From assembly GCA_011605725.1 (NCBI GenBank), contig JAAOZP010000003.1, positions 9,032 to 73,031 on the forward strand: 64,000 nt of DNA, in the 5' to 3' direction. Numbering within the stretch: the first letter of the stretch is position 1; each line of letters begins with the position of its first letter. Shown piece after piece: positions 2,297-45,925 of the stretch. This stretch comes from Nitrososphaerota archaeon (lineage in GTDB: Archaea > Thermoproteota > EX4484-205 > JAAOZP01). A program made the position numbers and the translations under genes. The notes beneath the pieces were generated by a model. The model had not been told where the DNA came from, ran no database searches, and worked only from the letters and a program-made list of their open reading frames with translations.

Positions 2297-3979
2297 ATGA
2301 AGCGTCAAGCATTGTCCTTTTTATCACTGATGTTCCTGGCAATAATGATTTCCTATTTCGTTTACTCATTGTGGAGGGTTGAGCATATGAAAGAGTCACA
2401 GACTTTAATAAGAAGAATCGAATTAATGCCTTCTACTCCTGAACCGTTTGTCATGAAAAACTGGAAGGAGCTTACTAAAGCATACATCCGTTTCGTCTTC
2501 AACTTCAACCTTACCGGTGAGTACTTGCCCTTAATAAGGCTAGATAAATCTGACCCGGACGCTATTTCCTTCGACCTGCCGTCTTACATCGGCGATTCTA
2601 GGATGCGTGAAGGCTCTGGAGAAGCAATTAATTGCGTAGCAGCAGTGTTGAGTGGCACGCTTATCGGTATTAACATGAGTAACTATAATGGTTATGACTG
2701 GGTTTCAATGTGTAAAAGCTGGTTCAGTAAGGAAGACGGTATATTTCTCAATGCTAAGAGAGGGCAAAGCGGAGGGTCTTTCTGGTATGACATATATCCA
2801 AACATATTGATTTTTTCCCTAGTATACTACTATCCGGAAGCAGCGCCTTCATGGAATTCGACTCTGTATAATGCGGCTGAAAGTTTTTACAAGGCTTCCC
2901 AAATTATTCGCACACGATACAATGATTCAGATTTTGACTTCACCGCGTTCGATTTCCGCGGAATGATACCCGTTAATAACGGAAGATGGGTGGAACCGGA
3001 TGCAGCGGCAGGAATCGCATGGCTGGAGTACATGGCTTACGTGAAATGGGGCAATCCGCGTTTTCTGGATGCTGCGAAGTGGAACATGCAGTTCCTCCAA
3101 GAGAGGAAAATTAATCCTTTCTACGAAGTGTTGCTTCCCTTCGGAGCCTATACTGCTGCACGCATGAATGCAGAGCTCAGAACAAACTACGATGTGCAAA
3201 AGCTTTTGAACTGGTGTTTTGACGGCGAGACCCCGATAGGCCCAAGACCCGGATGGGGTGTTATAGTCGGCAAGTGGGGTGATTACGATGTCAATGGATT
3301 AGTAGGTAGTCTTACAGACGGCGGCGGTTATGCTTTTGCAATGAATACCTTCGACATGGCTCTGCCACTGGTACCCCTAGTACGTTACAACACTAGTTTC
3401 GCCAAGGATATAGGCAAGTGGCTGCTTAATGCTGCGAACAATGCTCGATTGTTTTATCCGGATTCACTCCCGGAAAGCCATCAATCCTCCTCATCATGGA
3501 GATATAGCAACGTTGTTGCGTATGAAGGATTGCGATACATATGGAATGGGAAGAGTCCCTACGCGATGGGTGACCCCATTCTCCATGGCTGGGGCGCTAC
3601 TGACCTGGGTCTTTACGGGTCTTCCCATGTGGGAGTGTTCGGCGGAATCATTAGTCTTACTGATGATGAGAAAATACTTCAAATAGACCTCCTTAAAACA
3701 GATATGTATCACGGTCCTGCTTACCCAACATACCTTTATTATAATCCTTATGATGTTGAGAAAAGTGTAAAGATAGAAGTTGGTTCTGAGCCGGTGGACA
3801 TTTACTGCGCTGTTACACATAGGTTTTTAGGAAGGAGTGTAACAGGCACTGGGGTGATTACGCTTCCGCCGGACTCGGCTGCAGTGATTATACTAGTGCC
3901 GTCTGGGGGTCAGGTTGAATATTCTAACGGAAGAATGCTTGTGAACGGGATCATCGTAGACTATGAATGTGAAAGTTAA
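2297..3979 (+). CDS. Membrane-anchored hypothetical protein, likely extracytoplasmic, function unknown (possibly glycan-active).
   Basis: 560-aa ORF. N-terminal hydrophobic anchor LSFLSLMFLAIMISYFVYSLW followed by a large soluble domain rich in W/Y/G. No diagnostic catalytic motif recognised. Confidence 0.45.
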   Translation: MKRQALSFLSLMFLAIMISYFVYSLWRVEHMKESQTLIRRIELMPSTPEPFVMKNWKELTKAYIRFVFNFNLTGEYLPLIRLDKSDPDAISFDLPSYIGDSRMREGSGEAINCVAAVLSGTLIGINMSNYNGYDWVSMCKSWFSKEDGIFLNAKRGQSGGSFWYDIYPNILIFSLVYYYPEAAPSWNSTLYNAAESFYKASQIIRTRYNDSDFDFTAFDFRGMIPVNNGRWVEPDAAAGIAWLEYMAYVKWGNPRFLDAAKWNMQFLQERKINPFYEVLLPFGAYTAARMNAELRTNYDVQKLLNWCFDGETPIGPRPGWGVIVGKWGDYDVNGLVGSLTDGGGYAFAMNTFDMALPLVPLVRYNTSFAKDIGKWLLNAANNARLFYPDSLPESHQSSSSWRYSNVVAYEGLRYIWNGKSPYAMGDPILHGWGATDLGLYGSSHVGVFGGIISLTDDEKILQIDLLKTDMYHGPAYPTYLYYNPYDVEKSVKIEVGSEPVDIYCAVTHRFLGRSVTGTGVITLPPDSAAVIILVPSGGQVEYSNGRMLVNGIIVDYECES

Positions 3980-4027: not shown

Positions 4028-5335
4028 TTGCCAAAACAGATCAGGTTCGACGAGAAAGATAAAGTTATTCTCTCGATCCTGTATGAAGACGCTCGCCTTA
4101 AAAACAGGCAGATCGCTTTAAAAACCAATCTTAGCCAAGCCACTGTCGCCAGAAGAATCAATAAAATGAAAAAAATGCAGATTATAAAAAGGGTTGTTCC
4201 CATAATTGATTATAAAAAAATAGGCAAGACTTCTGCATGCTTCATCCTGCTCGATTTAAAGAACTGCGATGCCGACAGCTTGATGAAATACTTGGAAAAT
4301 GCTGAGGAAGTAATATGTTTGTACCTTCTTGAAGGAGAAAAAATGCTTTTAAAAACTGTTTTTGAAAACAGATCGGCTTTAAATAATTTTGTCGACAAGA
4401 TTAAAAGGTTTTTCGGAAGCAACATCGACAGTCTTTACGAGGTCAGATCCATCCTGATTGAGGAGAAATGTCCCTTCCAAGGCGTTTCAGAGTTGAGGGC
4501 TGAAACTCATTATGAGGATCAGTCGAAAATAACGCTAAGCAACAGTAGGATTAGGCTCACTGTAGATTTAGGCAAGGGTGGAATAATAGACGAAATAGTT
4601 CCCACGAACATGAGTAGCATAAACCTGGCTTTTCCCGAGCTTGGCCTGCTTTTCGACACTTTTATAGAAACCCAGTTTTGGCTGGACGAGCTTCAAATAA
4701 CTAAGCCCTACTACAATATAAAAAGGGATGAGAACTGGATGGAGCTAAACTTCAGAAAATCAGTTAAAGCGATTTCTGCGTTAAGAGGTTTAGAGATAAC
4801 TAAGACAATTCGTTTAGAAAAAAACTTGAACGAGGCTAAGATCAAGTATTTACTGGTCAATAATGGTGGAGCTGAAAAAACATTGACGCTTTGGGTTTGC
4901 AACTATCTTGACGCCTCACTATTCTCAGAGCTGATAATCCCGTCGGCTGACGGCGTTAAAAAAATAAAGGTTGTGAACGATTCGAGCAGAGGCTTTTTCA
5001 CAGTTTCGGAGAAAGAGCTGAATGAGCTGGTGGGGAAATACTGGCGGGATGAATGGGGCTTATTCGTCCACCCCGAGAAGCCTGTAGATAGAGCTGGCTA
5101 TTTCAGTAAGCTTTTAAAAATCATCCTAATGTTTCACTTCGACCCGAAGCAAGTGTGGGTTGTTAAGAGGTTTTGGGGAGAGAAATACGTTAGTCTAGAA
5201 CTACTGTTCAACCCAGCCTCCATGCGGCCGGGGGAGACTGCTCAATACGAATTCAACATCCGCTTGTTATCAAGCAGAAAAGACTATTCTGATGAGTTTC
5301 ACGGTAATTTGTTTCATTTTTCCCCGGATATTTGA
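4028..5335 (+). CDS. Lrp/AsnC-family transcriptional regulator (HTH plus RAM domain) fused to a ~285-aa C-terminal domain of unknown function.
   Basis: The N-terminus (DEKDKVILSILYEDARLKNRQIALKTNLSQATVARRINKM…) is a typical Lrp/AsnC HTH. Residues ~60-150 resemble the RAM/ACT-like ligand domain. The long C-terminal extension has no recognised motif. TTG start in the track. Confidence 0.55.
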   Translation: MPKQIRFDEKDKVILSILYEDARLKNRQIALKTNLSQATVARRINKMKKMQIIKRVVPIIDYKKIGKTSACFILLDLKNCDADSLMKYLENAEEVICLYLLEGEKMLLKTVFENRSALNNFVDKIKRFFGSNIDSLYEVRSILIEEKCPFQGVSELRAETHYEDQSKITLSNSRIRLTVDLGKGGIIDEIVPTNMSSINLAFPELGLLFDTFIETQFWLDELQITKPYYNIKRDENWMELNFRKSVKAISALRGLEITKTIRLEKNLNEAKIKYLLVNNGGAEKTLTLWVCNYLDASLFSELIIPSADGVKKIKVVNDSSRGFFTVSEKELNELVGKYWRDEWGLFVHPEKPVDRAGYFSKLLKIILMFHFDPKQVWVVKRFWGEKYVSLELLFNPASMRPGETAQYEFNIRLLSSRKDYSDEFHGNLFHFSPDI

Positions 5336-5351
5336 CACATTTTTTCCTTAA

Positions 5352-7427
5352 TTGAAAAAACTTAAAAAAACATCAAAAGTATTAACAACGGTAAAAATGA
5401 GCCAGGAAGCTGGCGTACAAACGTATGAGGAAGGGGGGGCAAAAACTGTTCTAGCAAAATTCCCGTTACGTGCCTTCATAATAGGCCTTATACTGGCAGT
5501 GATTTCGACCATGCTCTGGGTTGCGCATACTCGTGCCAACTTGACCTACAATATACCTTGGGCAGGCTTAGCTGCAGGAGGAATAGACTTCACACTGTTC
5601 ATAGGATACGGTTTCGCTTCCCTAATAGTTCTACCAATCATCCTGTCTAAAATCGGCGTAAAACTTACTCCTACGGAATACGCTATCATATACATAATGG
5701 TTCTAATCGGATGGACTGGGCCTGCTCTTTTCTGGATGTGGGGCGTCCAAATATGGACTGTCTGGACATGGAGCGGAGGAGTCGTGGCAAAAGAACTTGC
5801 ATTAACCGGGAAAATACCTGCCTACTGGTATGTTTTGAACGAGAAACAGGCAGAATGGTTCTTCTCAGGCGGGCCTTTCATATTGAGCGAAATCTCTAGT
5901 CCAATACTCTTCTGGAGCGTAATGGCCATATGTGAAGGACTCATGACGTTCTTCCTAGCTCTGATCTTCAGAAGGAAATGGGTTGAAACCGAAAGCCTAC
6001 CTTTCCCATTCGCCTCCTCAGCAGTAATGCTGGTAAACATGACTGAAGAAGCTCAAGACAAGCCCGGTATTAAAATGGCGAGAGAAAGGCTACTCTGGAT
6101 CGCGTTCCTAATCGCAGTGCTGGCTTACGGGTTCAACATAATACATGCTTTCATTCCAACAATACCGCGGATTCCAATAGATGAAATCGATCTGAATCCT
6201 TGGGGTGGGGGGAACATTGGAGTCAACCTGGATTTAACACCGACGTTTAAAGGCGCGATGATCGTTCTAAACTTCAATCCTCTGCTTATAGCAGCATTAT
6301 TCCTCCTGCCGCTCGACATCCTGTTAACCACGTGGGTAGCAATGGTTGTGTTTCAATGGATATGGCCTGCCGTCGGGATCTCTACAGGCTTGTTCCCAGA
6401 TATCTCGGCGCAAGGCGCTTGGAGCGTATGGTGGGCACTTGGAAACGAATGGTCCGGAGCAATCTGGTATTTACTTGGATATGGCTTTATACAGGGAGTG
6501 GCAATATGGGTGATAATATCGAGTCGAAAATACTTTTCCAGCCTAATCTCCTCAGCCATCAAGGGAGACGCTGAATCCCGCATCGGCCTCTTCGGCTTCA
6601 TAGGCATAACCGTGATATGGCTACTCATCATGTTTGCGCAAGGCGCTAATCCATTGGTTATAACACTTTCAGTAGTCTATTTCCTCCTCGTCTACTTGGG
6701 AATGATGAGGTACCGTACGGAGTCTTCCCCCGCCGGCGGCGGCTTCTGGTGGTGGAACTGGACTAACGGAGTCTTCTCAAAAATAGGTAACTGGCCGATA
6801 GGATCGCCTGAAGCATATGTAACAATGAACCTAACGTCTCCAATGGGTGCAGGCCCAGGCAATATACAGTATGCACTATTATCAACAGATATTGTGCATA
6901 TTTCATCACAGTTCAAGATGGATGTCAAACACCTGTGTTTAATCGTTGTCTTAACCACAGTGATCACCGTGATTTTCGGAGGCATATTCTATGCCTGGTG
7001 GGGCTACGCTGGTTTAAGAGGCCTCGGATGGCTTAACGACCAGCAAACCTTCGCGATAGACCTTGGGTATGCGATTTATAAGAGTGGAACATCGTTCAAA
7101 CTAACTGTCTGGGAGCCAACATACATTCCTTACATTGCTGGAGTCGTCTTGGCGGTGATACTCATGTGGCTTAAAGCGACTTTCGCAACAATCCCGTTCA
7201 ACCCGTTAGGTTTAATAATGGGCTGCATGTACATGTGGCCATGGGTTTTCACGTCAGTGCTGATAGCTTGGCTGGCAAAGTACATAATCTTCAAAACAGG
7301 AGGAACCCCATTATACCAGAGGCTTCTCCCCGGTGCAATAGGTTTCATAGGTGGTTATTGGTTTGTGAAACTAGTCATGTGGTTCATAGTCCGCCTCTTC
7401 ATAGGATTACAGCTACCGCCCCCATAG
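5352..7427 (+). CDS. Polytopic integral membrane protein (more than 12 predicted TM segments), first gene of the membrane operon.
   Basis: 691 aa. Many hydrophobic W/F/G-rich helices (e.g. GGGFWWWNWTNG). The next gene starts 56 bp downstream on the same strand. Confidence 0.5.
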   Translation: MKKLKKTSKVLTTVKMSQEAGVQTYEEGGAKTVLAKFPLRAFIIGLILAVISTMLWVAHTRANLTYNIPWAGLAAGGIDFTLFIGYGFASLIVLPIILSKIGVKLTPTEYAIIYIMVLIGWTGPALFWMWGVQIWTVWTWSGGVVAKELALTGKIPAYWYVLNEKQAEWFFSGGPFILSEISSPILFWSVMAICEGLMTFFLALIFRRKWVETESLPFPFASSAVMLVNMTEEAQDKPGIKMARERLLWIAFLIAVLAYGFNIIHAFIPTIPRIPIDEIDLNPWGGGNIGVNLDLTPTFKGAMIVLNFNPLLIAALFLLPLDILLTTWVAMVVFQWIWPAVGISTGLFPDISAQGAWSVWWALGNEWSGAIWYLLGYGFIQGVAIWVIISSRKYFSSLISSAIKGDAESRIGLFGFIGITVIWLLIMFAQGANPLVITLSVVYFLLVYLGMMRYRTESSPAGGGFWWWNWTNGVFSKIGNWPIGSPEAYVTMNLTSPMGAGPGNIQYALLSTDIVHISSQFKMDVKHLCLIVVLTTVITVIFGGIFYAWWGYAGLRGLGWLNDQQTFAIDLGYAIYKSGTSFKLTVWEPTYIPYIAGVVLAVILMWLKATFATIPFNPLGLIMGCMYMWPWVFTSVLIAWLAKYIIFKTGGTPLYQRLLPGAIGFIGGYWFVKLVMWFIVRLFIGLQLPPP

Positions 7428-7482
7428 AAGCAAACATGTTTTTTTCAAACATCTATTCTTTTTCCGCTTTCTCCACTAAAAG

Positions 7483-10400
7483 GTGGTCGGCTTGAATAAG
7501 ATGAGAATATTACTCCTCACAATTCTTCTCATAGTGTTTTCCATGATGTTCCCCCCGGGCCCTCTAAATCCGTCGGGATTAGGAGAGGAGAGAGAGGATA
7601 GTAGCGTTATGCACACGAGCCTCCACAGCGTCATGCAAAAAGTTGATTTAAACGCTGTGGTGAACCATGTTTCTTACCTTTCCAGTCTGGATTCACGCGT
7701 CACGGGTTATCCCGGGTATGAAAAAGCCTGTGAATATGTTTACAGCAGGTTTGTCGAATACGGTTTATCAAACGTCTCATACCACTTCTATAATGTTGCA
7801 GTTCCTATTGATTACGAGACATACGTATTTCTCCCCTCTAAAGGTGTTAAACTCAAAGCTTATGCACTTTGGCCCAACGGTATACAGGCTAGTTCAATAA
7901 ATTTAACGGCGCCACTCGTCTACTGTGGGGACGGCGAGTGGAGAGATTTTGACGGAAAGAAGATAAACGGAAGCATAGTTCTTCTCGAGTTCAACAGCCG
8001 TGATAACTGGTTGAAGGCTTCTGAACTGGGAGCTAGAGCCGTTATCTTCATAGAGCCGGACGATACTTCTACCTCAGAGGCTCAGCTTAAGAAGCTTAAT
8101 TATGTTCCCCTCGATTTCCCAAGGCTCTACGTGAACAAGACAGCAGCGAAAATAATCCTTGACGAGCTTAAGCTTGAAGATAGTCTCACAGTACAGGTTT
8201 TCTCAAACATGAAGTATGAAAACATACGTGCAAAGAATGTAGTTGGCTTCATAAACGGGGTTGACCCTGATCCAGCGATACGCGAGCAAATAGTGTTGAT
8301 AGTTTCTCATTTCGACTCGGCCTCAGTGGTGCCGGCGCTCTCACCTGGAGCGAGCGAGGCAATCGGAGTGGCGGCGCTTCTTGAGCTTGCAAAGTTTTTC
8401 GCCGAAAACCCTGCTCCACGCACATTAATGTTTATCGCATTTTCAGGACACGGGGAGAACCTGATGGGTGCAAGGGCTTTCATGGGGGACATCGTATGGT
8501 TCGAAAAGAATGTTTCTCTCGCATCGAAGTTTGTCAGCGTGCTGGATATAGACATAACTGCTGAAACGGACTCCTCGGGATTCATGTTCTCCTTCATTGG
8601 AAACCAGGAGTCAAACAATTGGTATTCTGCATACTATCAAAGTTTCATCGAAAATGTTTCACAACTCTGGGTAGATCTGTATGCGAAAACATACAGGATA
8701 GAAGGATATCCTGGCATGCTTCCCGTAATGATAAGCCCGCTGAGCATCAGCTCTGAAGGAAACATCTTCGGCAGTTGCGGAATATTCTCAACCATTCAAA
8801 TAACAGGCCACTCTTGGTATCGGTATAGGGGTACACCTATCGATACGCTGGATAAATATGATTTTAACAACGTTAGGCCACAGGTGCAGGTTTTCTTTTT
8901 AAACGCTTACCTTCTTGCTAACTCTCTACCCAAAAAGCCTTTGCAACCGTTCAGCATCAGTTTCGCAAGGTTTCCACAGGGTAGCACTGTTGTGCAGGGC
9001 GGCGGATTCGGGCTTCTAGTTGGGAAAGTCGTGGAGTATGACATGGCGAAAGGGGAATACGAGCCTGTTCCAAACAGTATCGTCTTAATCAGATCTTCAA
9101 CAGGCAGCGAGTTTCAAGTGACGTTTACTAACGCTGAGGGCGTTTTCATTTATCCTGGAGCACGTCCACTAGCCCGTCAAGGCTACCCGTATTTTGTAGA
9201 AGCGTACACGATTAACAGCTCTACCAATTCAATACTGTACGCTCCAGATTACGGTAGGTATGTAGCATCCTACAGCAATTACATACAGGTTCCGATGGAG
9301 GGGTATCTGGGCACTTTAGAGCATCCGAGGCCTTTTGTTGTTTTCAAAGCGGGAAGCCTAGTACAGTATGATGTCTTGGCCACTGAGCAACTACTGTCGA
9401 CGATTAGCTTTTACTCTCGCGAATTAGGAATAACAGCTGGAACAATATCTCCAACGATATATGTAAACGATATTGGAACGCATGCTCCGCCTGATCATTA
9501 CAGCTGGATTGCGGAGAGTGCTGTCAGCATTGTTTTCGCAACCTCTTCGAAGCCTATCGAGGTAATAATTAAAGTTGGCTCGTCACCATTAGGCATGCTG
9601 ATTAACGCTACTCAAGAACATCCAGAGGGTTCAGGCATCAGGTTAAGGATTGGCGAACAGTTAAAAATCACCCACACGCCTTTAAAACTTGCAAATGATC
9701 TTCTTCTCCTCAACACTGCCCGTTTATCCAGTGCTAACTTAAAAGGATTATACACTGGGGCTGAGGACTATCATAGTCAGGCGTCAGCTTCCTTGGAAAA
9801 CGCTAAGACCGCTCTCAACAGGAATGAATACTCGCTTTTCTATGCGGAATGTATCGAATCCTGGTCTTTAAGCAAACAGGTTTATCAACTTGTTATGGAT
9901 AACATTAATTCCTCAGCAAGCACCGCTTCATTCCTATTTGCCTTCCTGATCCCATTCACACTGATCTTCGAAGGACTCTTCTTCTCCAATGTTAAAGCCT
10001 CCGCTAAGACTAGGTTTCTCAGGATAGTTGTAATCTTCGTTTCGATTCTAATGATCCTAGTGTTTTTCCATCCGGGTTTCAGAATCGCTTCAAGCATTTA
10101 CGTCTCCCTGCTCGGATTAACTATTCTAACTTTCACTCTCCCGGTAACGATAATTCTAATCTTGAACGCGGAAAGATTTCTTAGAGAAGTCAGAGTCAAG
10201 CTTATAGGAGAACACTATACTCGAGTGGGCAGGACAGCAGCCGTTTCTTTATCTTTCAACATGGGGATTTCACAGATGAGAAAGAGGACTTTAAGGACCT
10301 TCTTAGTGTTATTCTCGTTAATAGTAATAACTACGAGCACAGTCATGTTCACCTCCGTCTACCCGCTTACGATTGTAGGTAAGTATCCGAAGACAGGGCA

Positions 10401-11913
10401 AGCCAACTATGCAGGCTTGTTCCTGAGAGACATAGGTTACTCCTCGCTTAACTTCTGGTTTGTTGACAGAATCGTGTCCGAATTCGGGGCTAACGCTAAT
10501 ATCTGTGCCAGAGCCGTACTATACCCGCCGAGCAGCTACATAAAAGACGGGTTTAAACTGTTTAACTCAAGCATGCATGAAACACGTGTCCTGGCTGTTT
10601 ACGGTTTATCTTCAGAAGAAGGAGGAATAACCGGATGGGCTGAAAAACTAATAAACGGCTCATGGTTTCCCACAGGGTCTCTGCGTGTCGCAGTATTGCC
10701 AGACTCGTTGGCGAAAACGTTGCGAGTGAAAGTCGGGGACACGGTCTTCCTAGAAGGACTGCCTTTAAGGGTTGTAGGAATACTTAATTCCAGTGAAGCC
10801 AACCGGATTGTCGACCTGGATCAGAACCCGGCGACACCTAGGGATTTAAGAGTCATAACTGGAATAGGGTTCTTCTCCACCGGCGACCTGATTTTTGTAC
10901 CGTATCAACTAGCCATAGACCTCGGGGGTAGCCTATACTCCATCGTAATCGGCTTTAGAGAAAGCAGTCAAGTGGCTGATGCTGCAGAGCGGCTGGCAAA
11001 GGAGACGCGGCTCGCTATTTACGCTGCAGAAAAAACAGGTGCGGATGGAAATATTTACTACTGTTCAATCGCAAAGGGGATCCAGTCTTATGGTTACACT
11101 ATGCTTCTACTCCCGTTAATAATATCCGGACTAGTAATATTCAACATGATTTTACGTGTTGTTTTTGAAAGGACGAGGGAAATAGGAATACTCGGGGCTG
11201 TTGGCGCATCACCGCTGCAGATAGCTGGAATGTTTCTCGGAGAAATTGTTACATACGCTATAGTTAGCGTCATCATCGGCTATGTAACCGGTATTGTTCT
11301 GCTTCAGACTTTAACAAGCATGGGTCTTTTCATCTTTGAAGGGTTCTTCCCAAACTATTCCTCAATGTTTGCAGCATTCGTTATAAGCTTGATTCTGCTT
11401 TCAGTGTTAATTCCAAGCCTATACCCTCTTTACAAGGCTTCCAGAATAGTTACGCCCTCTCTGGAAAGGAAGTGGAAGCTGCCTACAAAACCTGTCGGCG
11501 ACAAATGGCTTATCCCGCTTCCCTTCGTATTCGTGAGCGAGAGTGAAGCCCACGGTATGCTAATGTTTCTGAAAGAGTATCTCAGTACGTTTACGTTGGA
11601 AGGCTTCGGCGCACCATTCGTCACTAAAAGCATAGCCTACAGGGAGGGGGAAAAGGAAAAAATCCTATCCGTCACAATGCATATCGCGCCTTTTCCAGCA
11701 GGCATTCATCAGAAAGTGGATGTCAATATAAGGTTTGACCCCAGCATTAAACGTTGGGCATCGAGTCTTCAAATCACAAGAATAGTGGGCGAGTTAAACA
11801 TGTGGCAGAAGTCAAACTACATCGTTATAGATGCTTTAAGGAAGCAATTCCTCCAGTGGCGTGGCTTGCCTGAATCCGTGAAAAACAAGTATAAGGTGAT
11901 GAAAAATGAGTAA
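7483..11913 (+). CDS. Giant surface/membrane protein. It has a signal anchor, an M28-like peptidase domain with a variant active site, a beta-sandwich, and a MacB-type periplasmic core domain with a C-terminal FtsX-family permease.
   Basis: M28-like block: SHFDS…PGASEAIGVAALLELAKFF…FIAFSGHGENLMGARAFM. This is an HxD-containing M28 pattern, but the GAxD position reads GASE and the EE pair reads GE. MacB_PCD-like block: …LAKTLRVKVGDTVFLEGLPLRVVGILN…. FtsX motif: FERTREIGILGAVGASPLQIAGMFLGE plus C-terminal TM helices. Confidence 0.6.
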   Translation: MVGLNKMRILLLTILLIVFSMMFPPGPLNPSGLGEEREDSSVMHTSLHSVMQKVDLNAVVNHVSYLSSLDSRVTGYPGYEKACEYVYSRFVEYGLSNVSYHFYNVAVPIDYETYVFLPSKGVKLKAYALWPNGIQASSINLTAPLVYCGDGEWRDFDGKKINGSIVLLEFNSRDNWLKASELGARAVIFIEPDDTSTSEAQLKKLNYVPLDFPRLYVNKTAAKIILDELKLEDSLTVQVFSNMKYENIRAKNVVGFINGVDPDPAIREQIVLIVSHFDSASVVPALSPGASEAIGVAALLELAKFFAENPAPRTLMFIAFSGHGENLMGARAFMGDIVWFEKNVSLASKFVSVLDIDITAETDSSGFMFSFIGNQESNNWYSAYYQSFIENVSQLWVDLYAKTYRIEGYPGMLPVMISPLSISSEGNIFGSCGIFSTIQITGHSWYRYRGTPIDTLDKYDFNNVRPQVQVFFLNAYLLANSLPKKPLQPFSISFARFPQGSTVVQGGGFGLLVGKVVEYDMAKGEYEPVPNSIVLIRSSTGSEFQVTFTNAEGVFIYPGARPLARQGYPYFVEAYTINSSTNSILYAPDYGRYVASYSNYIQVPMEGYLGTLEHPRPFVVFKAGSLVQYDVLATEQLLSTISFYSRELGITAGTISPTIYVNDIGTHAPPDHYSWIAESAVSIVFATSSKPIEVIIKVGSSPLGMLINATQEHPEGSGIRLRIGEQLKITHTPLKLANDLLLLNTARLSSANLKGLYTGAEDYHSQASASLENAKTALNRNEYSLFYAECIESWSLSKQVYQLVMDNINSSASTASFLFAFLIPFTLIFEGLFFSNVKASAKTRFLRIVVIFVSILMILVFFHPGFRIASSIYVSLLGLTILTFTLPVTIILILNAERFLREVRVKLIGEHYTRVGRTAAVSLSFNMGISQMRKRTLRTFLVLFSLIVITTSTVMFTSVYPLTIVGKYPKTGQANYAGLFLRDIGYSSLNFWFVDRIVSEFGANANICARAVLYPPSSYIKDGFKLFNSSMHETRVLAVYGLSSEEGGITGWAEKLINGSWFPTGSLRVAVLPDSLAKTLRVKVGDTVFLEGLPLRVVGILNSSEANRIVDLDQNPATPRDLRVITGIGFFSTGDLIFVPYQLAIDLGGSLYSIVIGFRESSQVADAAERLAKETRLAIYAAEKTGADGNIYYCSIAKGIQSYGYTMLLLPLIISGLVIFNMILRVVFERTREIGILGAVGASPLQIAGMFLGEIVTYAIVSVIIGYVTGIVLLQTLTSMGLFIFEGFFPNYSSMFAAFVISLILLSVLIPSLYPLYKASRIVTPSLERKWKLPTKPVGDKWLIPLPFVFVSESEAHGMLMFLKEYLSTFTLEGFGAPFVTKSIAYREGEKEKILSVTMHIAPFPAGIHQKVDVNIRFDPSIKRWASSLQITRIVGELNMWQKSNYIVIDALRKQFLQWRGLPESVKNKYKVMKNE

Positions 11914-13786
11914 TAAGAAAACCACGTATGGGAAAGGGTTAACATTAAGGGTGATGCTTGTAATCCTGTATTCCGGCGTATTCCTAATGCCGGCAGTCAT
12001 ATTTTCCACCCTCACGTCTGGAGTAAGTGTTGGAGGAAGTGTTAGCTTCGTAGTTGCTTTTCTCGCGATCGAGCTTGCAGCACTCATGGGCTCGTCTTTA
12101 AGCAAGCAGGAAGTATTCATACTGTGGAGCTGCAGCGGGGTTGCTGCAACCGACGTGATCTTTCTCTCCCTGCTGCAGAACCTGTATTTCAGATCAATCT
12201 CTTCAGTAACCTGGCAGTTTAAATCCCTCGATACTTCTTTACCACTGCCTTTAGCTATTCCAGACTGGTTTGCACCCCCTCCGAACTCCCCGGTGCTCCT
12301 GCTCAGGACTTTCCTTCATCAAGACTGGTTGTTGCCGATAGCCGTAACACTAACAGGATGGATACTCTCCGGGAAAGTTATAGACTTAGCACTTGGCTTC
12401 CTATTCTTCAAAATATATTCCGACGAGGAAAAACTTCCTTTTCCAATGCAGGAAGTGACTGCTCAAATGATTCTCACCCTTCCCGAGGAGAAATCGAGCA
12501 AGAAGAGCATGCTGACCATCACGGCTCTAATAGCGTTTGTTTACAATATCCTGCTTTACGCAATACCCTTCGTAACATCTTTTTCAATAGTTCCGATTCC
12601 TATCCCCTGGATGGATTTCAGTAATGCTTTTGAATCCTTCCTACCGGGTGCCACGTTCGGCATCGCAACAGATCTGCTCACGTTCGCCTCAGGCTTTATA
12701 AGCCCTTTGAACGTGGTTGTCTCCATGTTCATCGGATCATTCTCATTCTTCTTTATAGGTAATTACTTTGCCACCAGATTAGGTTTGTTCGCGTGGACTC
12801 CAGGCATGAATCTAAGCATGCTTTACCAGCGTTCAATTCTCTACGTTTGGGCATATCCGAATATTGGTCTAGCTATAGCTGCAGCTTTAATACCTATAAT
12901 AACTAGGCCGAAGTATCTAGTAGGCGCGTTTAAAAGCCTCTCAAGGTTTTCATCCTTATCTAGCGAGAAGGGAGAACTATCCCTGTTAACGGTTTTCCTT
13001 CTCTACCTCGGTTCCAGCATTATAATAATTTTAATCGTAATGATGCTAACAGGGTTCCCACTGTATATCGCCATACCTTTCATACTCGGATGGTCCTTCA
13101 TATCGTCAATGATTTCAACTAGATCGGTTGCAGTCTCCGGGTTTCAAGTCACAGTGCCGTATGTCCGCGAGGCTTTAATCTTAGCCAGCGGATATAATCA
13201 TGTCGACATCTGGTTCGCCCCCATGGGGAGCTCAGGGGGTGCAGCATGGTGGGCAAGCTGGTTTAAGCTGAGCGACCTGTTGGAAACAAACTACAAGGAT
13301 ATTATTAAAGGACAAATATTTGCTTCAATCGTCGCCATAGTGTTCTCCTTTATTTACGTATCCTTGTTCTGGAGCATTTCTCCAATACCGTCACCCCTAT
13401 ACCCTGCTGTCGACATATACTGGCCGGTTAACATTTTAATGTCAGGCCTATGGATAACAGGCGCGATAAGCACTGGGAATGCTGTTCAAACAATTATCGG
13501 CACCACACTCGTAGCCACAGCGGTTTCCTTACTCACAGAGTTTCTTAAAATACCGTTCTCACTGATAGGTTTTCTCATCGGTACTTCTTCACCTATTCCG
13601 ACAAGCGTTACAGCAATTCTTGGAGCAATCTTCGGCGTAGCGCTCAGAAGGTTTAAGGGGGAAAACTGGTATAGGGAGAATAAGTCTGTTATTGGAGCAG
13701 GGCTCTTCCTCGGGTCCAGCCTAGCCATAACCATTGGTGTTGCCTCAGCAATGATATTAAAAGGCGGATGGTCTCTTCCATATTGA
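11906..13786 (+). CDS. Polytopic integral membrane protein, third gene of the membrane operon.
   Basis: 626 aa with many TM helices. Its start overlaps the stop of the upstream 1476-aa gene by 8 nt, suggesting translational coupling. Its C-terminal pattern (RFKGENWY…VIGAGLFLG) loosely parallels the C-terminus of the 691-aa protein. Confidence 0.5.
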   Translation: MSNKKTTYGKGLTLRVMLVILYSGVFLMPAVIFSTLTSGVSVGGSVSFVVAFLAIELAALMGSSLSKQEVFILWSCSGVAATDVIFLSLLQNLYFRSISSVTWQFKSLDTSLPLPLAIPDWFAPPPNSPVLLLRTFLHQDWLLPIAVTLTGWILSGKVIDLALGFLFFKIYSDEEKLPFPMQEVTAQMILTLPEEKSSKKSMLTITALIAFVYNILLYAIPFVTSFSIVPIPIPWMDFSNAFESFLPGATFGIATDLLTFASGFISPLNVVVSMFIGSFSFFFIGNYFATRLGLFAWTPGMNLSMLYQRSILYVWAYPNIGLAIAAALIPIITRPKYLVGAFKSLSRFSSLSSEKGELSLLTVFLLYLGSSIIIILIVMMLTGFPLYIAIPFILGWSFISSMISTRSVAVSGFQVTVPYVREALILASGYNHVDIWFAPMGSSGGAAWWASWFKLSDLLETNYKDIIKGQIFASIVAIVFSFIYVSLFWSISPIPSPLYPAVDIYWPVNILMSGLWITGAISTGNAVQTIIGTTLVATAVSLLTEFLKIPFSLIGFLIGTSSPIPTSVTAILGAIFGVALRRFKGENWYRENKSVIGAGLFLGSSLAITIGVASAMILKGGWSLPY

Positions 13787-13901: not shown

Positions 13902-14954
13902 ATGACTGTGGAAGAGAGGCTCCTTAGAAAAGCACTTGATCACCTTGAAAAACATAGAGGCATGAGGAGAAACGAGACTGATGATATTTTTGAAAGAAAA
14001 GCGCTAATTGTTTCGGAACAAGACATTTTAATGAGAAACTACCCAAGAAAGCACCCGAAGCTCGCATTCAATCCAGGCGCTCTCCTTCAAGGAGAAGTTC
14101 TGCATGTTTTCCCGCGGCTAATTTTCGACTATTACACTTACACGTCAAGCATAGGCAGGTTCTCCATAAATGTGGAAAGCTTGATTAACGGTGGCCTCAG
14201 CCTTCCTGTTGAAACGGACATCGTGATGTGGCCGAAGCTCCTCTGGGAATTCAGGGGCTGCGAAGACCCTCGTGTTTTTAAACAAGATGGAAAAATGCTT
14301 ATGCTGTACACCGGTTATGGTTATTTCTTAGAAAAGGATACGCTGAACACAAGCATCGTGCAGGCGTTTGCAGAGTTTGATAACGGTTTCTCAATAACAA
14401 GTAGAAAATACTTTAAAATAAAATCTATGAATGAGGACTATTTCATTCCGAAAAGCAACAAGGATTCCGCCTTCTTAAAAGTGAATAGTGAAGAAGCCGT
14501 TATTCTGACCCGCCCCCTGATAGGAAGCGTTGAAGTAGGCTGGAGGGCTGATGCGAATTTGAATGAAGCCGTAATGTATGAAAAAACAATGGAACCGTCT
14601 CTGCCTTTCGAGAATTGGGAGTTTAAAGTAGGCTGGTCGACAAACGCTATCCGGCTTTCCTCTAACGAGTTCTTGGTTGGTTGGCACGGCATTGTTAAAG
14701 AAGACTATTCATACAGGAATGGTTTAGCAATTCTCGACAACGATGGTCGATTACTAGCTGTAAGCAATTACCTGCTTGCCCCAAAGGGAGTGAGTGAGGA
14801 GTATGGTGATAGGCCTCACGTGATATTTGGCAACGGGCTGGTTTCCTACAAGGAGAGCCTTATCTGGGTTGGTGGTGTCAGCGATTATGCAATAGGATTC
14901 TTCGTCACGGAGCTTGAGAGAGCCTTGGGAAAATTGAAATGGGTTAGCGGATAG
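13902..14954 (+). CDS. GH130/DUF377-type beta-propeller glycosidase or phosphorylase-like protein.
   Basis: NPGALLQGEVLHVFPR… and GCEDPRVFKQDGKMLMLYTGY resemble GH130 (G-x-EDPR-i … y-x-x-Y-t-a). Confidence 0.5.
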   Translation: MTVEERLLRKALDHLEKHRGMRRNETDDIFERKALIVSEQDILMRNYPRKHPKLAFNPGALLQGEVLHVFPRLIFDYYTYTSSIGRFSINVESLINGGLSLPVETDIVMWPKLLWEFRGCEDPRVFKQDGKMLMLYTGYGYFLEKDTLNTSIVQAFAEFDNGFSITSRKYFKIKSMNEDYFIPKSNKDSAFLKVNSEEAVILTRPLIGSVEVGWRADANLNEAVMYEKTMEPSLPFENWEFKVGWSTNAIRLSSNEFLVGWHGIVKEDYSYRNGLAILDNDGRLLAVSNYLLAPKGVSEEYGDRPHVIFGNGLVSYKESLIWVGGVSDYAIGFFVTELERALGKLKWVSG

Positions 14955-14967
14955 TCTACAATACGCG

Positions 14968-17328
14968 TCAGTTCAGAACAATCATGTAATACGTATCTCC
15001 ATGACCCATAAATTCCTGGGTTTTTCCGTCGAATAGGCTTGTATGAACCTCTTTCACCACCTTGCCCTCCTCGTTTAATTGTAAAATTTTCAAAGGCTGT
15101 TTCCTCTCATCGAGATAAATAATTCTTGCTTTGAAGGGATAGTCCTTCGTCCCGGATACTTTGAAGACAACCTTTCCGTTTTCTTCAGAATGAAAAACGA
15201 GAGGATACTCCGTATAAAGTATAACTTTCCCATTGTTGAAAACATTGTACAGCCCGGTTGCAATCTCTATCGGATACCCTGCGCCATATATTTCTTGGCC
15301 TACTTGACCTGATTTCTTCCAACCGAACATGAGGTCTTCAAACGGAATATACCAGGATGGAACAAGCTCGCCGCAAGCCGTTTTTTCAGCAATCATTTCT
15401 CCCGGATATTCTGGAGGCATGGTGTATTGCGCTTTATATTTCAGAAGCTCGGCTACGAGTTTTTTAACATGCTTTGGAAGACTTTTTTCACCATTAGTGA
15501 GATATTCAAGCATATATCTAAAAACCTTTCCCTCTTCGCATGCAGCTACGTAGGATTCCGGCATAGCCATAGTTGAGAAAAATGTTCTAAAGTATTTCCC
15601 ATAACCATATTCACACTCGAAGAATACGCTGTGCCTAATTATGTTGGCTAAGGGTATGTAACTGATTTTCAAATATTTCTCATCGTTTGTCAATTGATAC
15701 AGCATTAAGGCGGCAACCGCACCCTCAGGCGTAGCAGTCATTTCATATGCATACTCGAAGCCTCTTTCCCCAATCCTCTCCACTGCTTTCTCAGCCTCCT
15801 CCAGGAACTTCCTATCGCCTGTTAACCTGTAGTACTGCAACATTAAGTATGCATAGACGCCTGTGACGTCGTATTCGTAAACAGGTTTTCCAGTACCCAT
15901 AATATCGTGATACTCACCGGTTAAAATATCTACAAACTGGGGAAACACGTAGGAAACTTTTCTCCCCAGCATTGTAACAATGTTTCTACTCTTAAGAACC
16001 ATTTCTCTAGCTACAGAGTTTTCCTCTGCCAAGTGACTGGTCCAGAGAATGGGGCAAACGAAATACCATGCGTCAATTACCAGCGGCCTCTTGTTTTCTC
16101 CTAATACTAAGCTTTCAAGTATACATCCCTCCCCGTTTCCATCTACGTTGGGTTTAAAAAAGTCTTGAAGACCTTTTTCAAGCCTCTCTATCAAATCGAG
16201 CCCTCTTCCGAACTTCTTATAGTATTTCTTAAGAGGAACAAGCACGTCTAACAGGGTTATTAGCTCTGCGTTTGATGACCTGGAATCCTTTACGTATGCC
16301 CTAAGATACTGCTTACCATTAATAGTCACCCAATTTTCAGGATGAAGAAGGTTTTCAATTTCTTTCGGAACTATTCCGGTTGCCCAGTCCACATATGTTG
16401 TTTCAGGCTTATCGATTTCATCGTATATTTCAGAGAACATCTCCAGGAAAAGCTCGCAGCATTCCACGTTATTCTCCGGTTCTACGGGAGCAAGATATAG
16501 AAAACTGTCCAGAATCGTTACTTCCACACCGGGAGGGATTTCTTCACTGATCGGAATTTTATATCCAAACTTTAAAATGCTGTTGAAACTTTTATGGTCA
16601 AAATCGATGCGGCGAGTAGGGTAATAACTTATCCACGGATAGGATAAGTCAACAGTGTATGCAGCATCGGTCTTCGTAAGCTCGTAATACTTGTTTAAAG
16701 AGGATAGGTTTTGAAAGTAGAGAATAGTGCTTTTAACAACTTCCTCCTCGTAAAGGAAGCAAAACTGGTTATACACGTTTCTCAATCCCCAGGCAGACCT
16801 GTGGTCAACAGTTCCCCTTAAATAGTCTACCCCGCGCCCAGGGATAAGCTTGCCGCTTGAAACATCGTAAAACTTAATCTCCTGGTCAGTGGTGAGTCCC
16901 CACCCTTCTGCAGAAACCTGAGGGAAAAAGCGGTAGTAAGGGACTTTCTGCACTTCCTCTCTCCCCTTCGTTGAAAGGTCGACTTTCCAATTTATTAACC
17001 CAGGCTTATTTTTGAAAAATCTAATTCTCACGGTGAAATCAGCCCATTCATGTCTACTTTCCAGTAGAACTATGATTTCTCTATCGTTTTCACTGACAGT
17101 TATTTCCCTTACGCGTGTAAGTATTTCTAAAGCCGCATTATCTAGCCCGAAGTTCGTAACAAGCACCTTATTCCCAGGGTTCTTCAGGCTGTAAATGAAT
17201 ATGAAGCCGTTTGTTTTTTCCTTATGATATCGAACCTCGTATTCGCCGCTTATAACGGTGAAATACTCTTTCCCCCAAGAGACAGTTGAAACCTCTTTAC
17301 CATCATCTTTTTTTTCTCTACATTGCAT
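14968..17328 (-). CDS. Large cytoplasmic hypothetical protein, possibly an (alpha/alpha)6-barrel glycoside hydrolase-like enzyme.
   Basis: 786-aa ORF. The central region (YAYLMLQYYRLTGDRKFLEEAEKAVERIGERGFEYAYE…) resembles six-hairpin glycosidase repeats. No exact family assigned. Confidence 0.4.
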   Translation of the reverse strand: MQCREKKDDGKEVSTVSWGKEYFTVISGEYEVRYHKEKTNGFIFIYSLKNPGNKVLVTNFGLDNAALEILTRVREITVSENDREIIVLLESRHEWADFTVRIRFFKNKPGLINWKVDLSTKGREEVQKVPYYRFFPQVSAEGWGLTTDQEIKFYDVSSGKLIPGRGVDYLRGTVDHRSAWGLRNVYNQFCFLYEEEVVKSTILYFQNLSSLNKYYELTKTDAAYTVDLSYPWISYYPTRRIDFDHKSFNSILKFGYKIPISEEIPPGVEVTILDSFLYLAPVEPENNVECCELFLEMFSEIYDEIDKPETTYVDWATGIVPKEIENLLHPENWVTINGKQYLRAYVKDSRSSNAELITLLDVLVPLKKYYKKFGRGLDLIERLEKGLQDFFKPNVDGNGEGCILESLVLGENKRPLVIDAWYFVCPILWTSHLAEENSVAREMVLKSRNIVTMLGRKVSYVFPQFVDILTGEYHDIMGTGKPVYEYDVTGVYAYLMLQYYRLTGDRKFLEEAEKAVERIGERGFEYAYEMTATPEGAVAALMLYQLTNDEKYLKISYIPLANIIRHSVFFECEYGYGKYFRTFFSTMAMPESYVAACEEGKVFRYMLEYLTNGEKSLPKHVKKLVAELLKYKAQYTMPPEYPGEMIAEKTACGELVPSWYIPFEDLMFGWKKSGQVGQEIYGAGYPIEIATGLYNVFNNGKVILYTEYPLVFHSEENGKVVFKVSGTKDYPFKARIIYLDERKQPLKILQLNEEGKVVKEVHTSLFDGKTQEFMGHGDTYYMIVLN

Positions 17329-39166: not shown

Positions 39167-39188
39167 TTTGTGTCATGAGAAAACTCGT

Positions 39189-40070: not shown

Positions 40071-40109
40071 TCCAGTTTTCAAATTTAATTCAACCTAATA
40101 TTTTTTAAT

Positions 40110-41657: not shown

Positions 41658-41667
41658 GTGTTTAGGA

Positions 41668-45840: not shown

Positions 45841-45925
45841 TGTCCTTATAAGAACCTACACGGGAAGTTTTTAATCTTTGATTTTTCATTGGAACTTTTA
45901 AATAGCATGAGTTGGTGACTTATGT

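Follow-up and report, generated by a model that had tools for sequence, protein, structure and literature searches.

Three adjacent genes, here called D, M and O, in the 64-kb stretch of archaeal DNA analysed (the window) constitute a widespread and previously uncharacterised module. M is a type VII (MacB/FtsX-class) ABC permease with an extracytoplasmic head of ~800 residues; D and O are full-length paralogues of the OPT superfamily, D being a divergent paralogue of O. We give a probability of roughly 0.5 to the reading that D, M and O form a new type VII ABC plus OPT module for nutrient uptake, and we infer the direction of transport, the energy coupling and the substrate, which is probably a glycan.

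Architecture of D, M and O

The three open reading frames lie on the forward strand, D at 5352-7427 (691 aa), M at 7483-11913 (1476 aa) and O at 11906-13786 (626 aa); on rechecking, positions and sizes were those of the original prediction. A gap of 55 nt separates D from M, the start of O overlaps the stop of M by 8 nt, and a T-rich inverted repeat lies 3' of the O stop. In M, Pfam models matched residues 142-222 (PA, E 6e-4), 252-377 (Peptidase_M28, E 1.8e-12), 1037-1172 (MacB_PCD, E 1.3e-8) and 1207-1322 (FtsX, E 5.7e-15). AF2 models had pLDDT values of 89.7 (residues 30-850) and 89.2 (830-1476). Their Foldseek matches to PA-bearing M28 aminopeptidases, TfR and GCPII ranged from E 3e-26 to 1e-19, the head scoring 3e-26 against 2ek8 and ~1e-21 against TfR1 and GCPII. 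These results bear out the make-up first read from the translation (M28, beta-sandwich, MacB core, FtsX), with an M28-like N-terminus and an FtsX-like C-terminus. Residues 45-485 (7615..8937) form an extracytoplasmic M28 fold into which a PA domain (136-240) is inserted. Residues 486-812 (8938..9918) comprise beta-sandwich domains and then a long helical hairpin toward the membrane, as delimited by AF2 secondary structure (pLDDT mostly >85). Three extra TM helices, assigned from hydropathy and AF2 helices, follow at 813-897 (9919..10173), before the FtsX unit. The type VII permease unit itself (936-1318; 10288..11436) runs TM1, MacB-type periplasmic core domain (961-1200), TM2, coupling loop (ERTREIG, 1229-1244) and TM3-TM4, and is followed by a cytoplasmic alpha+beta C-terminal domain (1319-1476; 11437..11910) specific to M's FtsX subfamily. 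Both the beta-sandwich region (~486-730) and the coupling motif ERTREIGILGAVGASPLQ were found.

The suspicion that the M28 site is non-canonical proved correct, and it applies to the whole family. In M, E292 replaces the bridging Asp, H323 the catalytic Glu, G324 the ligand Glu and G450 the last His ligand, while the canonical H276 and D357 are kept. Among 120 homologues, position 323 is His in 108, position 357 Asp in 98 and position 292 Glu in 82; position 276 is divided between His (55) and Tyr (59), position 324 varies, and His does not occur at position 450. Both Zn1-specific ligands and the general-base Glu are replaced family-wide. Since the two-zinc aminopeptidase site is lost, the head is more likely to bind or present a ligand than to trim peptides. 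H276, E292, D357 and H323 could nevertheless make up a residual mononuclear metal site, so catalysis by the head is still conceivable. An alternative is peptide scavenging, in which M, fixed to the membrane, would be an active mono-metal exopeptidase acting on extracellular or periplasmic peptides, D and O would import its products, and the FtsX base and its ATPase would regulate the peptidase as in FtsEX. We regard this as unlikely, though it is the likeliest of the alternatives. In its favour, the M28 fold and its PA lid come closest to real aminopeptidases (2ek8, BSAP, PaAP), and the possible leftover site is well kept at D357 and H323; against this stand the family-wide loss of the general base and Zn1 ligands, the Tyr at position 276 in half of the homologues, and the presence, in one sub-family (P0095), of a galactose-binding domain of CBM32-like (F5/8 type C) kind within the M28 domain, as an insertion.

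D matched Pfam DUF6785 (1.5e-26) and DUF6784 (3.2e-12), and O matched Pfam OPT over residues 146-610 with 30.0 bits (gathering score 25.8; E 2.9e-7), a point that also speaks for peptide scavenging, OPT being named for oligopeptide transporters. Neither protein had a PDB relative by sequence. Aligned with hhalign, the D and O families gave a probability of 99.9 (E 4e-34, 600 columns); the two flanking proteins, previously taken to be unrelated, are paralogous.

Conservation and linkage of the module

Far from being unusual, as was first thought, the M fusion defines a large family, with more than 300 full-length homologues and 177 loci in species-representative genomes; the M-specific C-terminal domain occurs in at least 564 clusters at 50% identity. 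We examined the 38 well-flanked loci (≥4.5 kb on each side of M), 22 of them archaeal. O adjoins M in 33 of the 38, across Thermoproteota, Armatimonadota and Latescibacterota, and in most archaea a DUF6785/6784 gene is added: D adjoins M in 17 of the 22 archaeal loci, all of which have O too. The conservation of D, M and O as one unit, as originally proposed, is thus upheld. The remaining five loci (three Caldarchaeales-like, one Gemmatimonadota, one Firmicutes) have no separate D or O, and M can therefore exist on its own. The Gemmatimonadota locus (L068, from one MAG) actually has D, since its single ORF of 2135 aa continues in frame from the C-terminus of M into D. M and D are likewise joined in related, independent metagenome proteins (P0269, P0271 and P0336), where FtsX occurs together with DUF6785.

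The order of the genes shifts among loci (D-M-O, D-O-M, M-O-D), so that the linkage is selected and not passively inherited, and the pairwise identities of M and O co-vary (r = 0.93). From these sequence comparisons we infer that D, M and O are a conserved core working as one physical unit, presumably as a complex in this organism. That they are merely neighbours with independent functions would agree with the five loci in which M has no separate D or O (one of them the D-fused L068); it is highly improbable given adjacency in two domains of life despite gene-order shuffling, the co-varying divergence of M and O, the recurring in-frame M-D fusions and the M/O overlap in the window. Modules within a genome are deeply diverged, paralogues being only 27-35% identical, and Bathyarchaeia JZ-1 bin 83 has at least five.

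Neighbouring genes, energy coupling and substrate

All genes of the window named upstream of D are on the forward strand. At its left edge lie the C-terminal 108 aa (3..329) of 'unk300', a 304-aa soluble protein that starts left of the window and whose full gene, in the contig extension (L091/L092), ends 10 nt upstream of a gene for a PqqD-like protein (340..909; 189 aa; Pfam PqqD E 2.6e-10) with an RRE-type peptide-binding domain and a charged coiled C-terminal tail. Searches of Pfam, NCBIfam and the PDB returned no relatives of unk300. It is, however, homologous over its full length to a ~300-aa gene of 13 Armatimonadota operons (hmmsearch E 3e-27), ordered M-O-unk300-PqqD-FtsX(209 aa)-ABC; the PqqD-like gene here groups by BLASTP with theirs, and the unk300-PqqD pair is thus common to the window and these M operons. 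This block suggests another alternative, the export of a RiPP-like or signal peptide, in which the PqqD-like RRE and unk300 would handle a cytoplasmic peptide, the short FtsX, the LolD-type ATPase and M would export or process it, and the M28-like head would act on the leader. PqqD domains are peptide chaperones according to NCBIfam matches, and the unk300-PqqD-FtsX-ABC block is kept downstream of M-O in Armatimonadota, with the pair upstream here too. We nonetheless consider this reading quite improbable: the loci share no conserved gene for a precursor peptide or a modifying enzyme, the archaeal loci examined have no PqqD except in this window's lineage, the three Caldarchaeales-like loci have only a weak unk300-like gene, the catalytic residues are missing from the head, and multi-copy modules beside CAZymes do not suit a signalling peptide.

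No transporter-type ABC NBD is encoded within the 64-kb window. Its sole ABC-fold ATPase (958..1974; 338 aa) is of the RecF/AriA/mad3-like AAA_15/AAA_21 kind (Pfam AAA_15 5e-16, AAA_21 2e-15; PADLOC mad3/AriA 1e-16) and reached only E 4.7e-8 against the profile of the LolD-type NBD of the bacterial operons. It occupies the position held in the Armatimonadota operons by FtsX plus the ABC ATPase, and its membership of the module is uncertain. The ATPase of those operons has its best NCBIfam matches to LolD, MacB, YbbA and FtsE (2e-69). The claim that M has no adjacent ATPase consequently holds in this window and fails in Armatimonadota, whose operons encode both an NBD of the LolD/MacB type and a short FtsX. 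No segment of M is better conserved than the coupling loop (ER.rEI..GLsP), and its conservation is equal in archaeal M proteins with no ATPase nearby; in archaeal genomes a LolD-type ATPase encoded elsewhere presumably acts in trans.

Between the ATPase gene and D lie U (2297..3979), a membrane-anchored protein of 560 aa from a family without assignment (no Pfam or PDB match was found), with a TATA-like box (ctttaaaa) ~45 nt upstream, and a regulator gene (4028..5335) preceded by a TATA-like ctttatatt. The regulator joins a complete Lrp/AsnC unit, made up of HTH and RAM, to a C-terminal domain of ~300 extra residues; Pfam HTH_24 and HTH_AsnC matches and PDB Lrp/FL11 homologues over residues 5-128 (E 6e-13) confirm that an Lrp fusion stands directly upstream of D, 16 nt separating its stop from the D start. 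U keeps its place, in the order U, Lrp-fusion, D, M, O, in L005 (90% identity) and in the Brockarchaeota locus L065 (56%).

Downstream of O is a gene for a cytoplasmic enzyme of the GH130 beta-mannoside phosphorylase family (13902..14954, forward strand; Pfam Glyco_hydro_130 E 2.2e-68), likely the catabolic partner of the module. GH130 also adjoins the module, in another gene order, in the 58%-identical L085, where an 823-aa gene beside it bears only weak GH94/MGH1-like Pfam marks, and in other loci. The next gene (14968..17328, reverse strand) encodes a protein of 786 aa. Its (alpha/alpha)6 glycosidase-like signals, among them matches to GH88 and oligosaccharide-amylase, are weak; its homologues are neighbours in L005 and L065. 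GH5 and GH51 genes lie upstream of the window on the source contig. Counting top families only, genes within 3.5 kb of modules include GFO_IDH_MocA (13), GH130, GH31, GH127, GH5, GH106/78 and GH29, as well as sulfatases, xylose-isomerase-like TIM and AKR genes; annotated contigs with the module carry GH130, GH88, ROK, GalT, MR_MLE and esterases. These neighbourhoods are heterogeneous, with many housekeeping genes. The GH130, GH5 and GH51 neighbours suggest that beta-manno-oligosaccharides, or a glycan related to them, are the substrate. A peptide would instead be favoured by the PqqD-like genes in the 13 bacterial operons and upstream in this window, and by the M16 or M28 peptidase genes beside two bacterial loci; in addition, a Fervidibacter metaproteome (PMC11535203) counts M28 and OPT proteins among those for peptide catabolism. 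No genes for peptidases or for amino-acid catabolism were seen to recur beside the modules, however, whereas glycoside hydrolases and sugar oxidoreductases do.

In the uptake reading, the M head would capture an oligomeric nutrient outside the membrane, and the FtsX/MacB base, moved by ATP, would pass it on to D and O, or gate its entry into them, these permeases supplying the translocation pathway. Power would come from a LolD-type ATPase, whose gene belongs to the operon in Armatimonadota and presumably lies at another genomic site in archaea; the imported substrate would be degraded by cytoplasmic enzymes encoded nearby, and the Lrp-fusion regulator would control the module. A surface-remodelling or export machine, the function first suggested, would have the FtsX/MacB unit mechanically activate its own hydrolase-like head so that it processes S-layer or envelope components, or extract or expel a membrane-associated substrate as in LolCDE, HrtBA or YbbAP-TesA, with D and O recycling or exporting products. 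All characterised type VII ABC systems (MacAB, LolCDE, FtsEX-EnvC, YbbAP-TesA) act outward or on the envelope (PMC12646458, PMC5985334), these proteins are the nearest structural matches, and the hydrolase-like domain is covalently joined. Such a function is nevertheless improbable: a genome can have up to five or more copies that are deeply diverged, which is not typical of housekeeping machinery of the envelope, the module is common to archaea with an S-layer and to diderm bacteria, whose envelopes are unrelated, the M28 catalytic site is degenerate, and the neighbours are cytoplasmic catabolic genes in sugar-responsive-looking loci, not envelope biogenesis genes. Uptake fits better because of the many diverged copies per genome, the carbohydrate-catabolic neighbours and the OPT-type importer partners.

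Comparison with known systems

M shares with type VII ABC systems (MacB, LolCDE, FtsEX, HrtBA, YtrEF, YbbAP-TesA) the four-TM FtsX-type membrane domain, the MacB-type periplasmic core domain from TM1 to TM2 and the ER.REIG coupling loop, and the module shares with them the LolD/MacB-type ATPase present in orthologous Armatimonadota operons. The attachment of a hydrolase-fold protein on the extracytoplasmic side is a further point in common with FtsEX-hydrolase systems and YbbAP-TesA. M differs in that its ~800-aa PA/M28-like/beta-sandwich/hairpin module is fused N-terminally via three extra TMs and has no canonical catalytic site, in its unique cytoplasmic C-terminal domain, in the lack of a nearby ATPase at archaeal loci, and in being consistently partnered, and sometimes fused, with OPT-superfamily permeases. 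We know of no OPT-superfamily partner among characterised type VII systems. The ADOP 'orphan' FtsX permeases (TIGR03434) are likewise multi-copy with no adjacent ATPase, but the match of M lies far under the cut-off (29 bits against 622), and the ADOP proteins, with their two FtsX repeats, have neither an M28 head nor the C-terminal domain.

The best sequence and structure matches of the head are the PA-domain M28 aminopeptidases (Aneurinibacillus AM-1 2ek8, B. subtilis YwaD/BSAP, P. aeruginosa PaAP), which have PA inserted at the same place and an alignable HxD...D...(E)E...D...H scaffold. Relative to these, M has His for the general-base Glu and Glu for the bridging Asp, and its family has Gly, Trp or other residues for the ligand Glu, Gly, Asp or Asn for the last His, Tyr for the first His in half of its members, and a 4-residue insertion after the DS motif. 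Transferrin receptor 1, nicalin and nicastrin are also membrane-anchored PA/M28 folds that have lost zinc ligands and act within membrane complexes as modules for binding or scaffolding. An M profile search retrieved nicalin (3.8e-12) and TfR1 (2e-11), with Pfam Nicastrin weak, and the fold comparison detected this group too; those proteins are eukaryotic, single-pass and without an ABC-type permease, and the likeness does not imply orthology.

As for the OPT family (PF03169; TC 2.A.67), O clears the Pfam gathering threshold and D is homologous to O over ~600 columns, with the E.LPFP motif region in common, yet both are very divergent, O with 30 bits and D matched by DUF models only. To our knowledge, OPT members of known substrate carry peptides or metal chelates and not sugars, which counts against a glycan as the substrate. 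Here, in contrast, the D+O pair is tied to an FtsX protein, in a context that suggests glycans.

Organisation of the cluster and relationship of its proteins

The cluster consists of three open reading frames on the + strand: D (5352-7427; 691 aa, Pfam DUF6785 and DUF6784), M (7483-11913; 1476 aa, Pfam PA, Peptidase_M28, MacB_PCD and FtsX) and O (11906-13786; 626 aa, Pfam OPT). The original prediction had these coordinates exactly right. D begins 16 nt after the gene of an Lrp-fusion regulator (4028-5335), 55 nt separate D from M, and the last 8 nt of M are shared with the start of O; direct reading of the junction 3' of O revealed a T-rich inverted repeat. The regulator gene and the gene of U, a membrane-anchored protein of no assigned family (2297-3979), accompany D-M-O in both of the nearest lineages (loci L005 and L065), the regulator gene lying upstream of D there too. 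The regulator carries the N-terminal winged helix-turn-helix and RAM/ACT-like domain of Lrp/AsnC (FFRP) proteins: it matches Pfam HTH_24 and HTH_AsnC, AsnC_trans_reg only weakly, and its FL11/LrpA homologues in the PDB span residues 5-128. Its extra C-terminal domain of ~300 residues, for which no Pfam or PDB match was found, may be a sensor domain. Scans of the 64-kb window with tRNA and Rfam models found no RNA genes.

Members of the OPT family import oligopeptides or metal chelates in a proton-coupled manner. O matches the OPT profile (PF03169) with 30.0 bits (GA 25.8) over profile positions 105-618 of 623. D has no direct OPT match and is instead linked to OPT through O, whose family profile it matches in hhalign. 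Cross-matches between HMMs of the D and O families have E values of 1e-10 to 1e-22, BLASTP aligns the E.LPFP region of the window's own D and O (E 3e-5), and comparison of the two family profiles gives a probability of 99.9% (E 4e-34) over 600 columns. Because of these matches, we consider D to be a divergent OPT-superfamily permease; the idea that the proteins flanking M are unrelated must be abandoned. PDB sequence searches with D, O, U, a 786-aa protein encoded nearby and the profile of unk300 (a ~300-aa protein without family, see below) found no relatives.

M was modelled with AlphaFold2 on 68-sequence alignments, with a pLDDT of 89.7 and a pTM of 0.87 for residues 30-850 and a pLDDT of 89.2 for residues 830-1476. 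Hydropathy and the models both give eight transmembrane segments (TMs). The first is an N-terminal signal anchor; the M28-like N-half is followed by beta-sandwich domains (residues ~486-730), a long helical hairpin (~731-812) and three extra TMs (813-897). The remainder has the layout of a type VII ABC permease, that is, a four-TM FtsX-type domain (PF02687) in the order TM1, large extracytoplasmic loop, TM2-4. TM1 (936-960) and TM2 enclose a MacB-like (Porter/Sabre) periplasmic core domain (961-1200), and between TM2 and the last two TMs, TM3 and TM4, lies a cytoplasmic coupling loop (1229-1244) whose helix is the predicted dock for a nucleotide-binding domain (NBD), its ERTREIG motif aligning with TERTKEIG of MacB. 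C-terminal to TM4 is a cytoplasmic domain (CTD) of 158 residues. NCBIfam returned only sub-threshold LolCE, MacB, FtsX and ADOP matches, all to the FtsX part.

A degenerate M28-like head

The N-half of M has the M28 alpha/beta fold (clan MH) with the optional PA insert, Peptidase_M28 scoring 47.8 bits against a GA of 21.3. In Foldseek its best matches are PA-bearing M28 aminopeptidases (2ek8, E 3e-26; 3iib, BSAP and PaAP), and the transferrin receptor and GCPII match nearly as well. In profile searches nicalin, nicastrin and the transferrin receptor come next after the true aminopeptidases and the MacB-type permeases. The active site was assessed by profile alignment to solved aminopeptidases (2ek8, AAP numbering) and by column counts over 120 full-length homologues. 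The co-catalytic zinc site of MEROPS family M28, which combines a general-base Glu with five ligands (His, Asp, Glu, Asp, His), is not preserved in M, where only the first His ligand (H276; H in 55 homologues, Y in 59) and the second Asp ligand (D357; D in 98) are retained. The bridging Asp is replaced by E292 (E in 82, D in 15, Q in 12), the general base by H323 (H in 108), the ligand Glu by G324 (W, G, F and others) and the last His ligand by G450 (G, D or N). Throughout the family the Zn1 half-site has been lost together with the catalytic base, leaving a Zn2-like cluster (H/Y, E, D) and a conserved His. With a mean pairwise identity of 36-41% the head is nonetheless among the better-kept parts of the protein, which argues that it has a selected function. 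Judging from these substitutions, we read it as a probable pseudo-peptidase or ligand-binding head; that the residual cluster serves a non-canonical mono-metal enzyme is conceivable, with the Zn1 side and the base missing. One sub-family (family member P0095) has an F5/8-type-C domain (CBM32-like, resembling the galactose-binding domain of NedA) inserted within its M28-like domain at residues 343-460, which hints that the head may handle glycans.

Linkage, fusion and the question of the ATPase

More than 300 full-length M homologues have the same architecture. Species-representative genomes contain 177 M loci, of which 80 were retrieved; the hosts are Bathyarchaeia, Brockarchaeota, Thermoprotei, Thermofilaceae, Calditenuaceae, Armatimonadota, Latescibacterota, Gemmatimonadota and a Firmicutes MAG. 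Nearest to the window are uncultured Thermoproteota: a MAG locus labelled 'uncultured archaeon' is 90% identical, a MAG protein labelled 'Nitrososphaerota' 88%, and Brockarchaeota reach 56%. Where M has flanks of at least 4.5 kb in both directions, O and D were both present in 17 of 22 loci in Archaea (O only, two; neither, three) and in 4 of 16 in Bacteria (O only, ten; neither, two). One of the two bacterial loci counted as having neither, L068 from Gemmatimonadota, does carry D, but fused into the M reading frame. Gene order differs among loci (D-M-O, D-O-M and M-O-D), and in 53 loci the pairwise identities of M are correlated with those of its neighbour O (r = 0.93). Single genomes can hold several modules that are mutually only 27-35% identical, at least five in the case of one Bathyarchaeia MAG.

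The fused protein (L068:9884-16288, MAG contig JAYPJE010000013; 2135 aa) joins the whole of M in frame to a DUF6785/DUF6784 permease, with a linker of ~30 residues between the CTD and D. A query spanning this junction retrieved the FtsX-DUF6785 fusion again in independent metagenome proteins: P0269 and P0271 (64% identity), and P0336 (49%). Fusion of this kind is classical Rosetta-stone evidence and points to a physical association of M with D.

Two other arrangements were seen around M. In three Caldarchaeales/Calditenuaceae-like MAGs (L043, L053 and L055) M occurs without D or O, preceded by a GFO_IDH_MocA gene and an AKR-4Fe4S gene and followed by two unknown genes of 345 aa and 298 aa, the latter weakly unk300-like. 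Several archaeal loci encode, beside D/M/O, FtsX paralogues of ~1000 aa with a different head lacking M28 (L003:16493-19453, L038:680-3793, L040:9191-12256, L059:4785-7820, L080:5427-8402 and L090:18405-21374), one of which bears a CarboxypepD_reg domain. Between their FtsX domain and the C-terminus there are ~130-180 residues, enough to accommodate an M-type CTD, and these paralogues may form heterodimers with M.

No transporter-type (LolD/MacB/FtsE) NBD is encoded within the 64-kb window. In Armatimonadota, by comparison, 13 orthologous operons (L001:14607-19482, L087:13658-20060 and 11 other loci) have the order M-O-unk300-PqqD-FtsX(~209 aa)-ABC and contain a LolD-type NBD, whose nearest relatives are LolD, MacB, YbbA and FtsE (E 2e-69), the type VII NBD clade. 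The ~300-aa protein of these operons has conserved CxxC, C and CH motifs; the last gene of the L087 operon encodes an M28 peptidase in its own right (486 aa), and two M16 peptidases precede the operon of L001. No part of M is better conserved than the coupling loop (ER.rEI..GLsP), at 55% identity; archaeal M proteins compared with one another are 56% identical in the loop and 31% over their whole length, and archaeal compared with bacterial M proteins 57% and 28%. Since the loop is equally conserved in archaea, we infer that archaeal M still docks an NBD, which would be encoded elsewhere in the genome; possibly one NBD is shared by several paralogous modules.

On the source contig (L091/L092), window positions 3-329 proved to hold the last part of a 304-aa gene, a full-length homologue of the Armatimonadota unk300 (E 3e-27), and the next gene (340-909) is PqqD-like and clusters with the PqqD-like gene of those operons. 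Because of these matches this archaeon, too, can be said to have the unk300-PqqD pair, located 4.4 kb upstream of D; on gene homology the module extends beyond the limits first drawn for it. The place taken by FtsX and ABC after unk300-PqqD in Armatimonadota is here occupied by a 338-aa AAA_15/21 ATPase (958-1974); on the source contig the pair and this ATPase lie at L091:9076-11635. We do not regard this protein as the missing transporter NBD: it resembles the defence-type ATPases AriA, mad3 and RecF and reaches only E 4.7e-8 against LolD-type NBD profiles. Adjoining the unk300-PqqD pair, it could be either a member of the module or a stray defence gene.

A defence island occupies the right half of the window (26989-59600), with two DUF4143/AAA_14 ATPases (26989-28269 and 35897-37192; PADLOC PDC-S01), an AbiEii toxin (29454-30305; E 2e-94), N6/N4 DNA methylase, HerA-like and NurA-like genes (39168-42858; weak mad8 match), a GmrSD/HEC-05 nuclease (47637-49373) and a complete Hma-type set: HmaC (49908-52856), the methylase HmaB (52908-55718) and the SNF2-PLD helicase HmaA (56274-59600). 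A spore-photoproduct-lyase-like gene adjoins a radical SAM gene at 44731-46915, and further left are genes for a transglutaminase-like protein (19744-20700) and a zf-AN1 and M50 site-2-protease-like protein (20803-21630).

Carbohydrate context and proposed function

We tallied the most frequent families among genes within 3.5 kb of the modules. The commonest were GFO_IDH_MocA oxidoreductases (13), and xylose-isomerase-like TIM barrels, aldo-keto reductases and URO-D-like proteins also recurred. Glycoside hydrolases in this range comprised GH130, GH31, GH127, GH5, GH106/78 and GH29, and sulfatases were present too. Six contigs annotated with Pfam contained GH130 and a weakly GH94/MGH1-like gene, GH88, a ROK kinase, GalT, MR_MLE and a carbohydrate esterase. 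In the window itself the neighbours are a GH130 gene (13902-14954), an MFS carrier and the 786-aa protein, whose resemblance to (alpha/alpha)6 glycosidases is weak. The carbohydrate-utilisation character of the locus continues to the left: L091:731-7552, less than 10 kb before the window begins, encodes a GH51-type alpha-L-arabinofuranosidase and a 620-aa enzyme of the GH5 'cellulase' family. In the established route of beta-mannan use in Ruminococcus and Bacteroides, a GH5 or GH26 mannanase is followed by oligosaccharide uptake and GH130 phosphorolysis. Because the neighbouring genes are carbohydrate-catabolic and this route offers a precedent, we propose that D/O/M would import an oligosaccharide or glycoconjugate; the head of M would be the receptor on the extracytoplasmic side, and the OPT-type carriers would be loaded or gated by the type VII base. 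We infer the ATPase in trans, the complex in this organism, the direction of transport and the substrate.

For the substrate of O and D the gene context leans towards glycans, and a peptide is a credible alternative in view of the OPT family precedent, the PqqD domain and the occasional peptidase neighbours. The Fervidibacter sacchari paper goes no further than listing M28 and OPT proteins (PMC11535203). The surface-remodelling or export machine envisaged in the original prediction fits the data least, because the module is present in multiple copies per genome, is distributed across domains and lies among catabolic genes.

The component parts of the module belong to known superfamilies, and literature searches on DUF6785/6784, M28-FtsX proteins, archaeal type VII ABC systems and OPT structures, within the library that could be searched, found nothing on the M family. 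Several features appear undescribed: a type VII ABC base that bears a pseudo-M28 head, a CTD specific to the subfamily, the association and fusion of M with permeases of the OPT type, and the unk300-PqqD accessory pair. We give a probability of roughly one in five to the reading that M-D-O is an undescribed hybrid transporter, in which a MacB/FtsX mechanotransmission unit would be mechanically coupled to OPT-superfamily secondary carriers, with unk300 and PqqD as cytoplasmic adaptors. Either the carriers would be loaded or gated by ATP-driven motions of the receptor-like head or, where archaea have no nearby ATPase, the proton-driven OPT-like proteins would power the FtsX unit. We give about the same odds to the coupling of an ABC mechanotransmitter to secondary carriers being itself a new principle.

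Bathyarchaeia, Brockarchaeota, Armatimonadota and Latescibacterota break down complex organic matter; they are abundant and for the most part uncultured, and to our knowledge their substrate uptake is poorly known. If the hybrid reading were true, these groups would possess a major overlooked route of glycan uptake; the module would be a new nutrient-acquisition class there, since several diverged copies per genome lie beside catabolic enzymes. DUF6785, DUF6784, the CTD of M and the unk300-PqqD pair gain a testable functional context. The module would also be the first type VII ABC mechanotransmitter partnered with secondary (OPT-type) permeases. In FtsEX and YbbAP-TesA-type complexes an ABC base of type VII governs an extracytoplasmic hydrolase that is active; M bears a hydrolase fold, but without the canonical catalytic residues. 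It would represent a prokaryotic M28 pseudo-peptidase serving as the receptor of a membrane complex, comparable to the eukaryotic nicastrin, nicalin and transferrin receptor.
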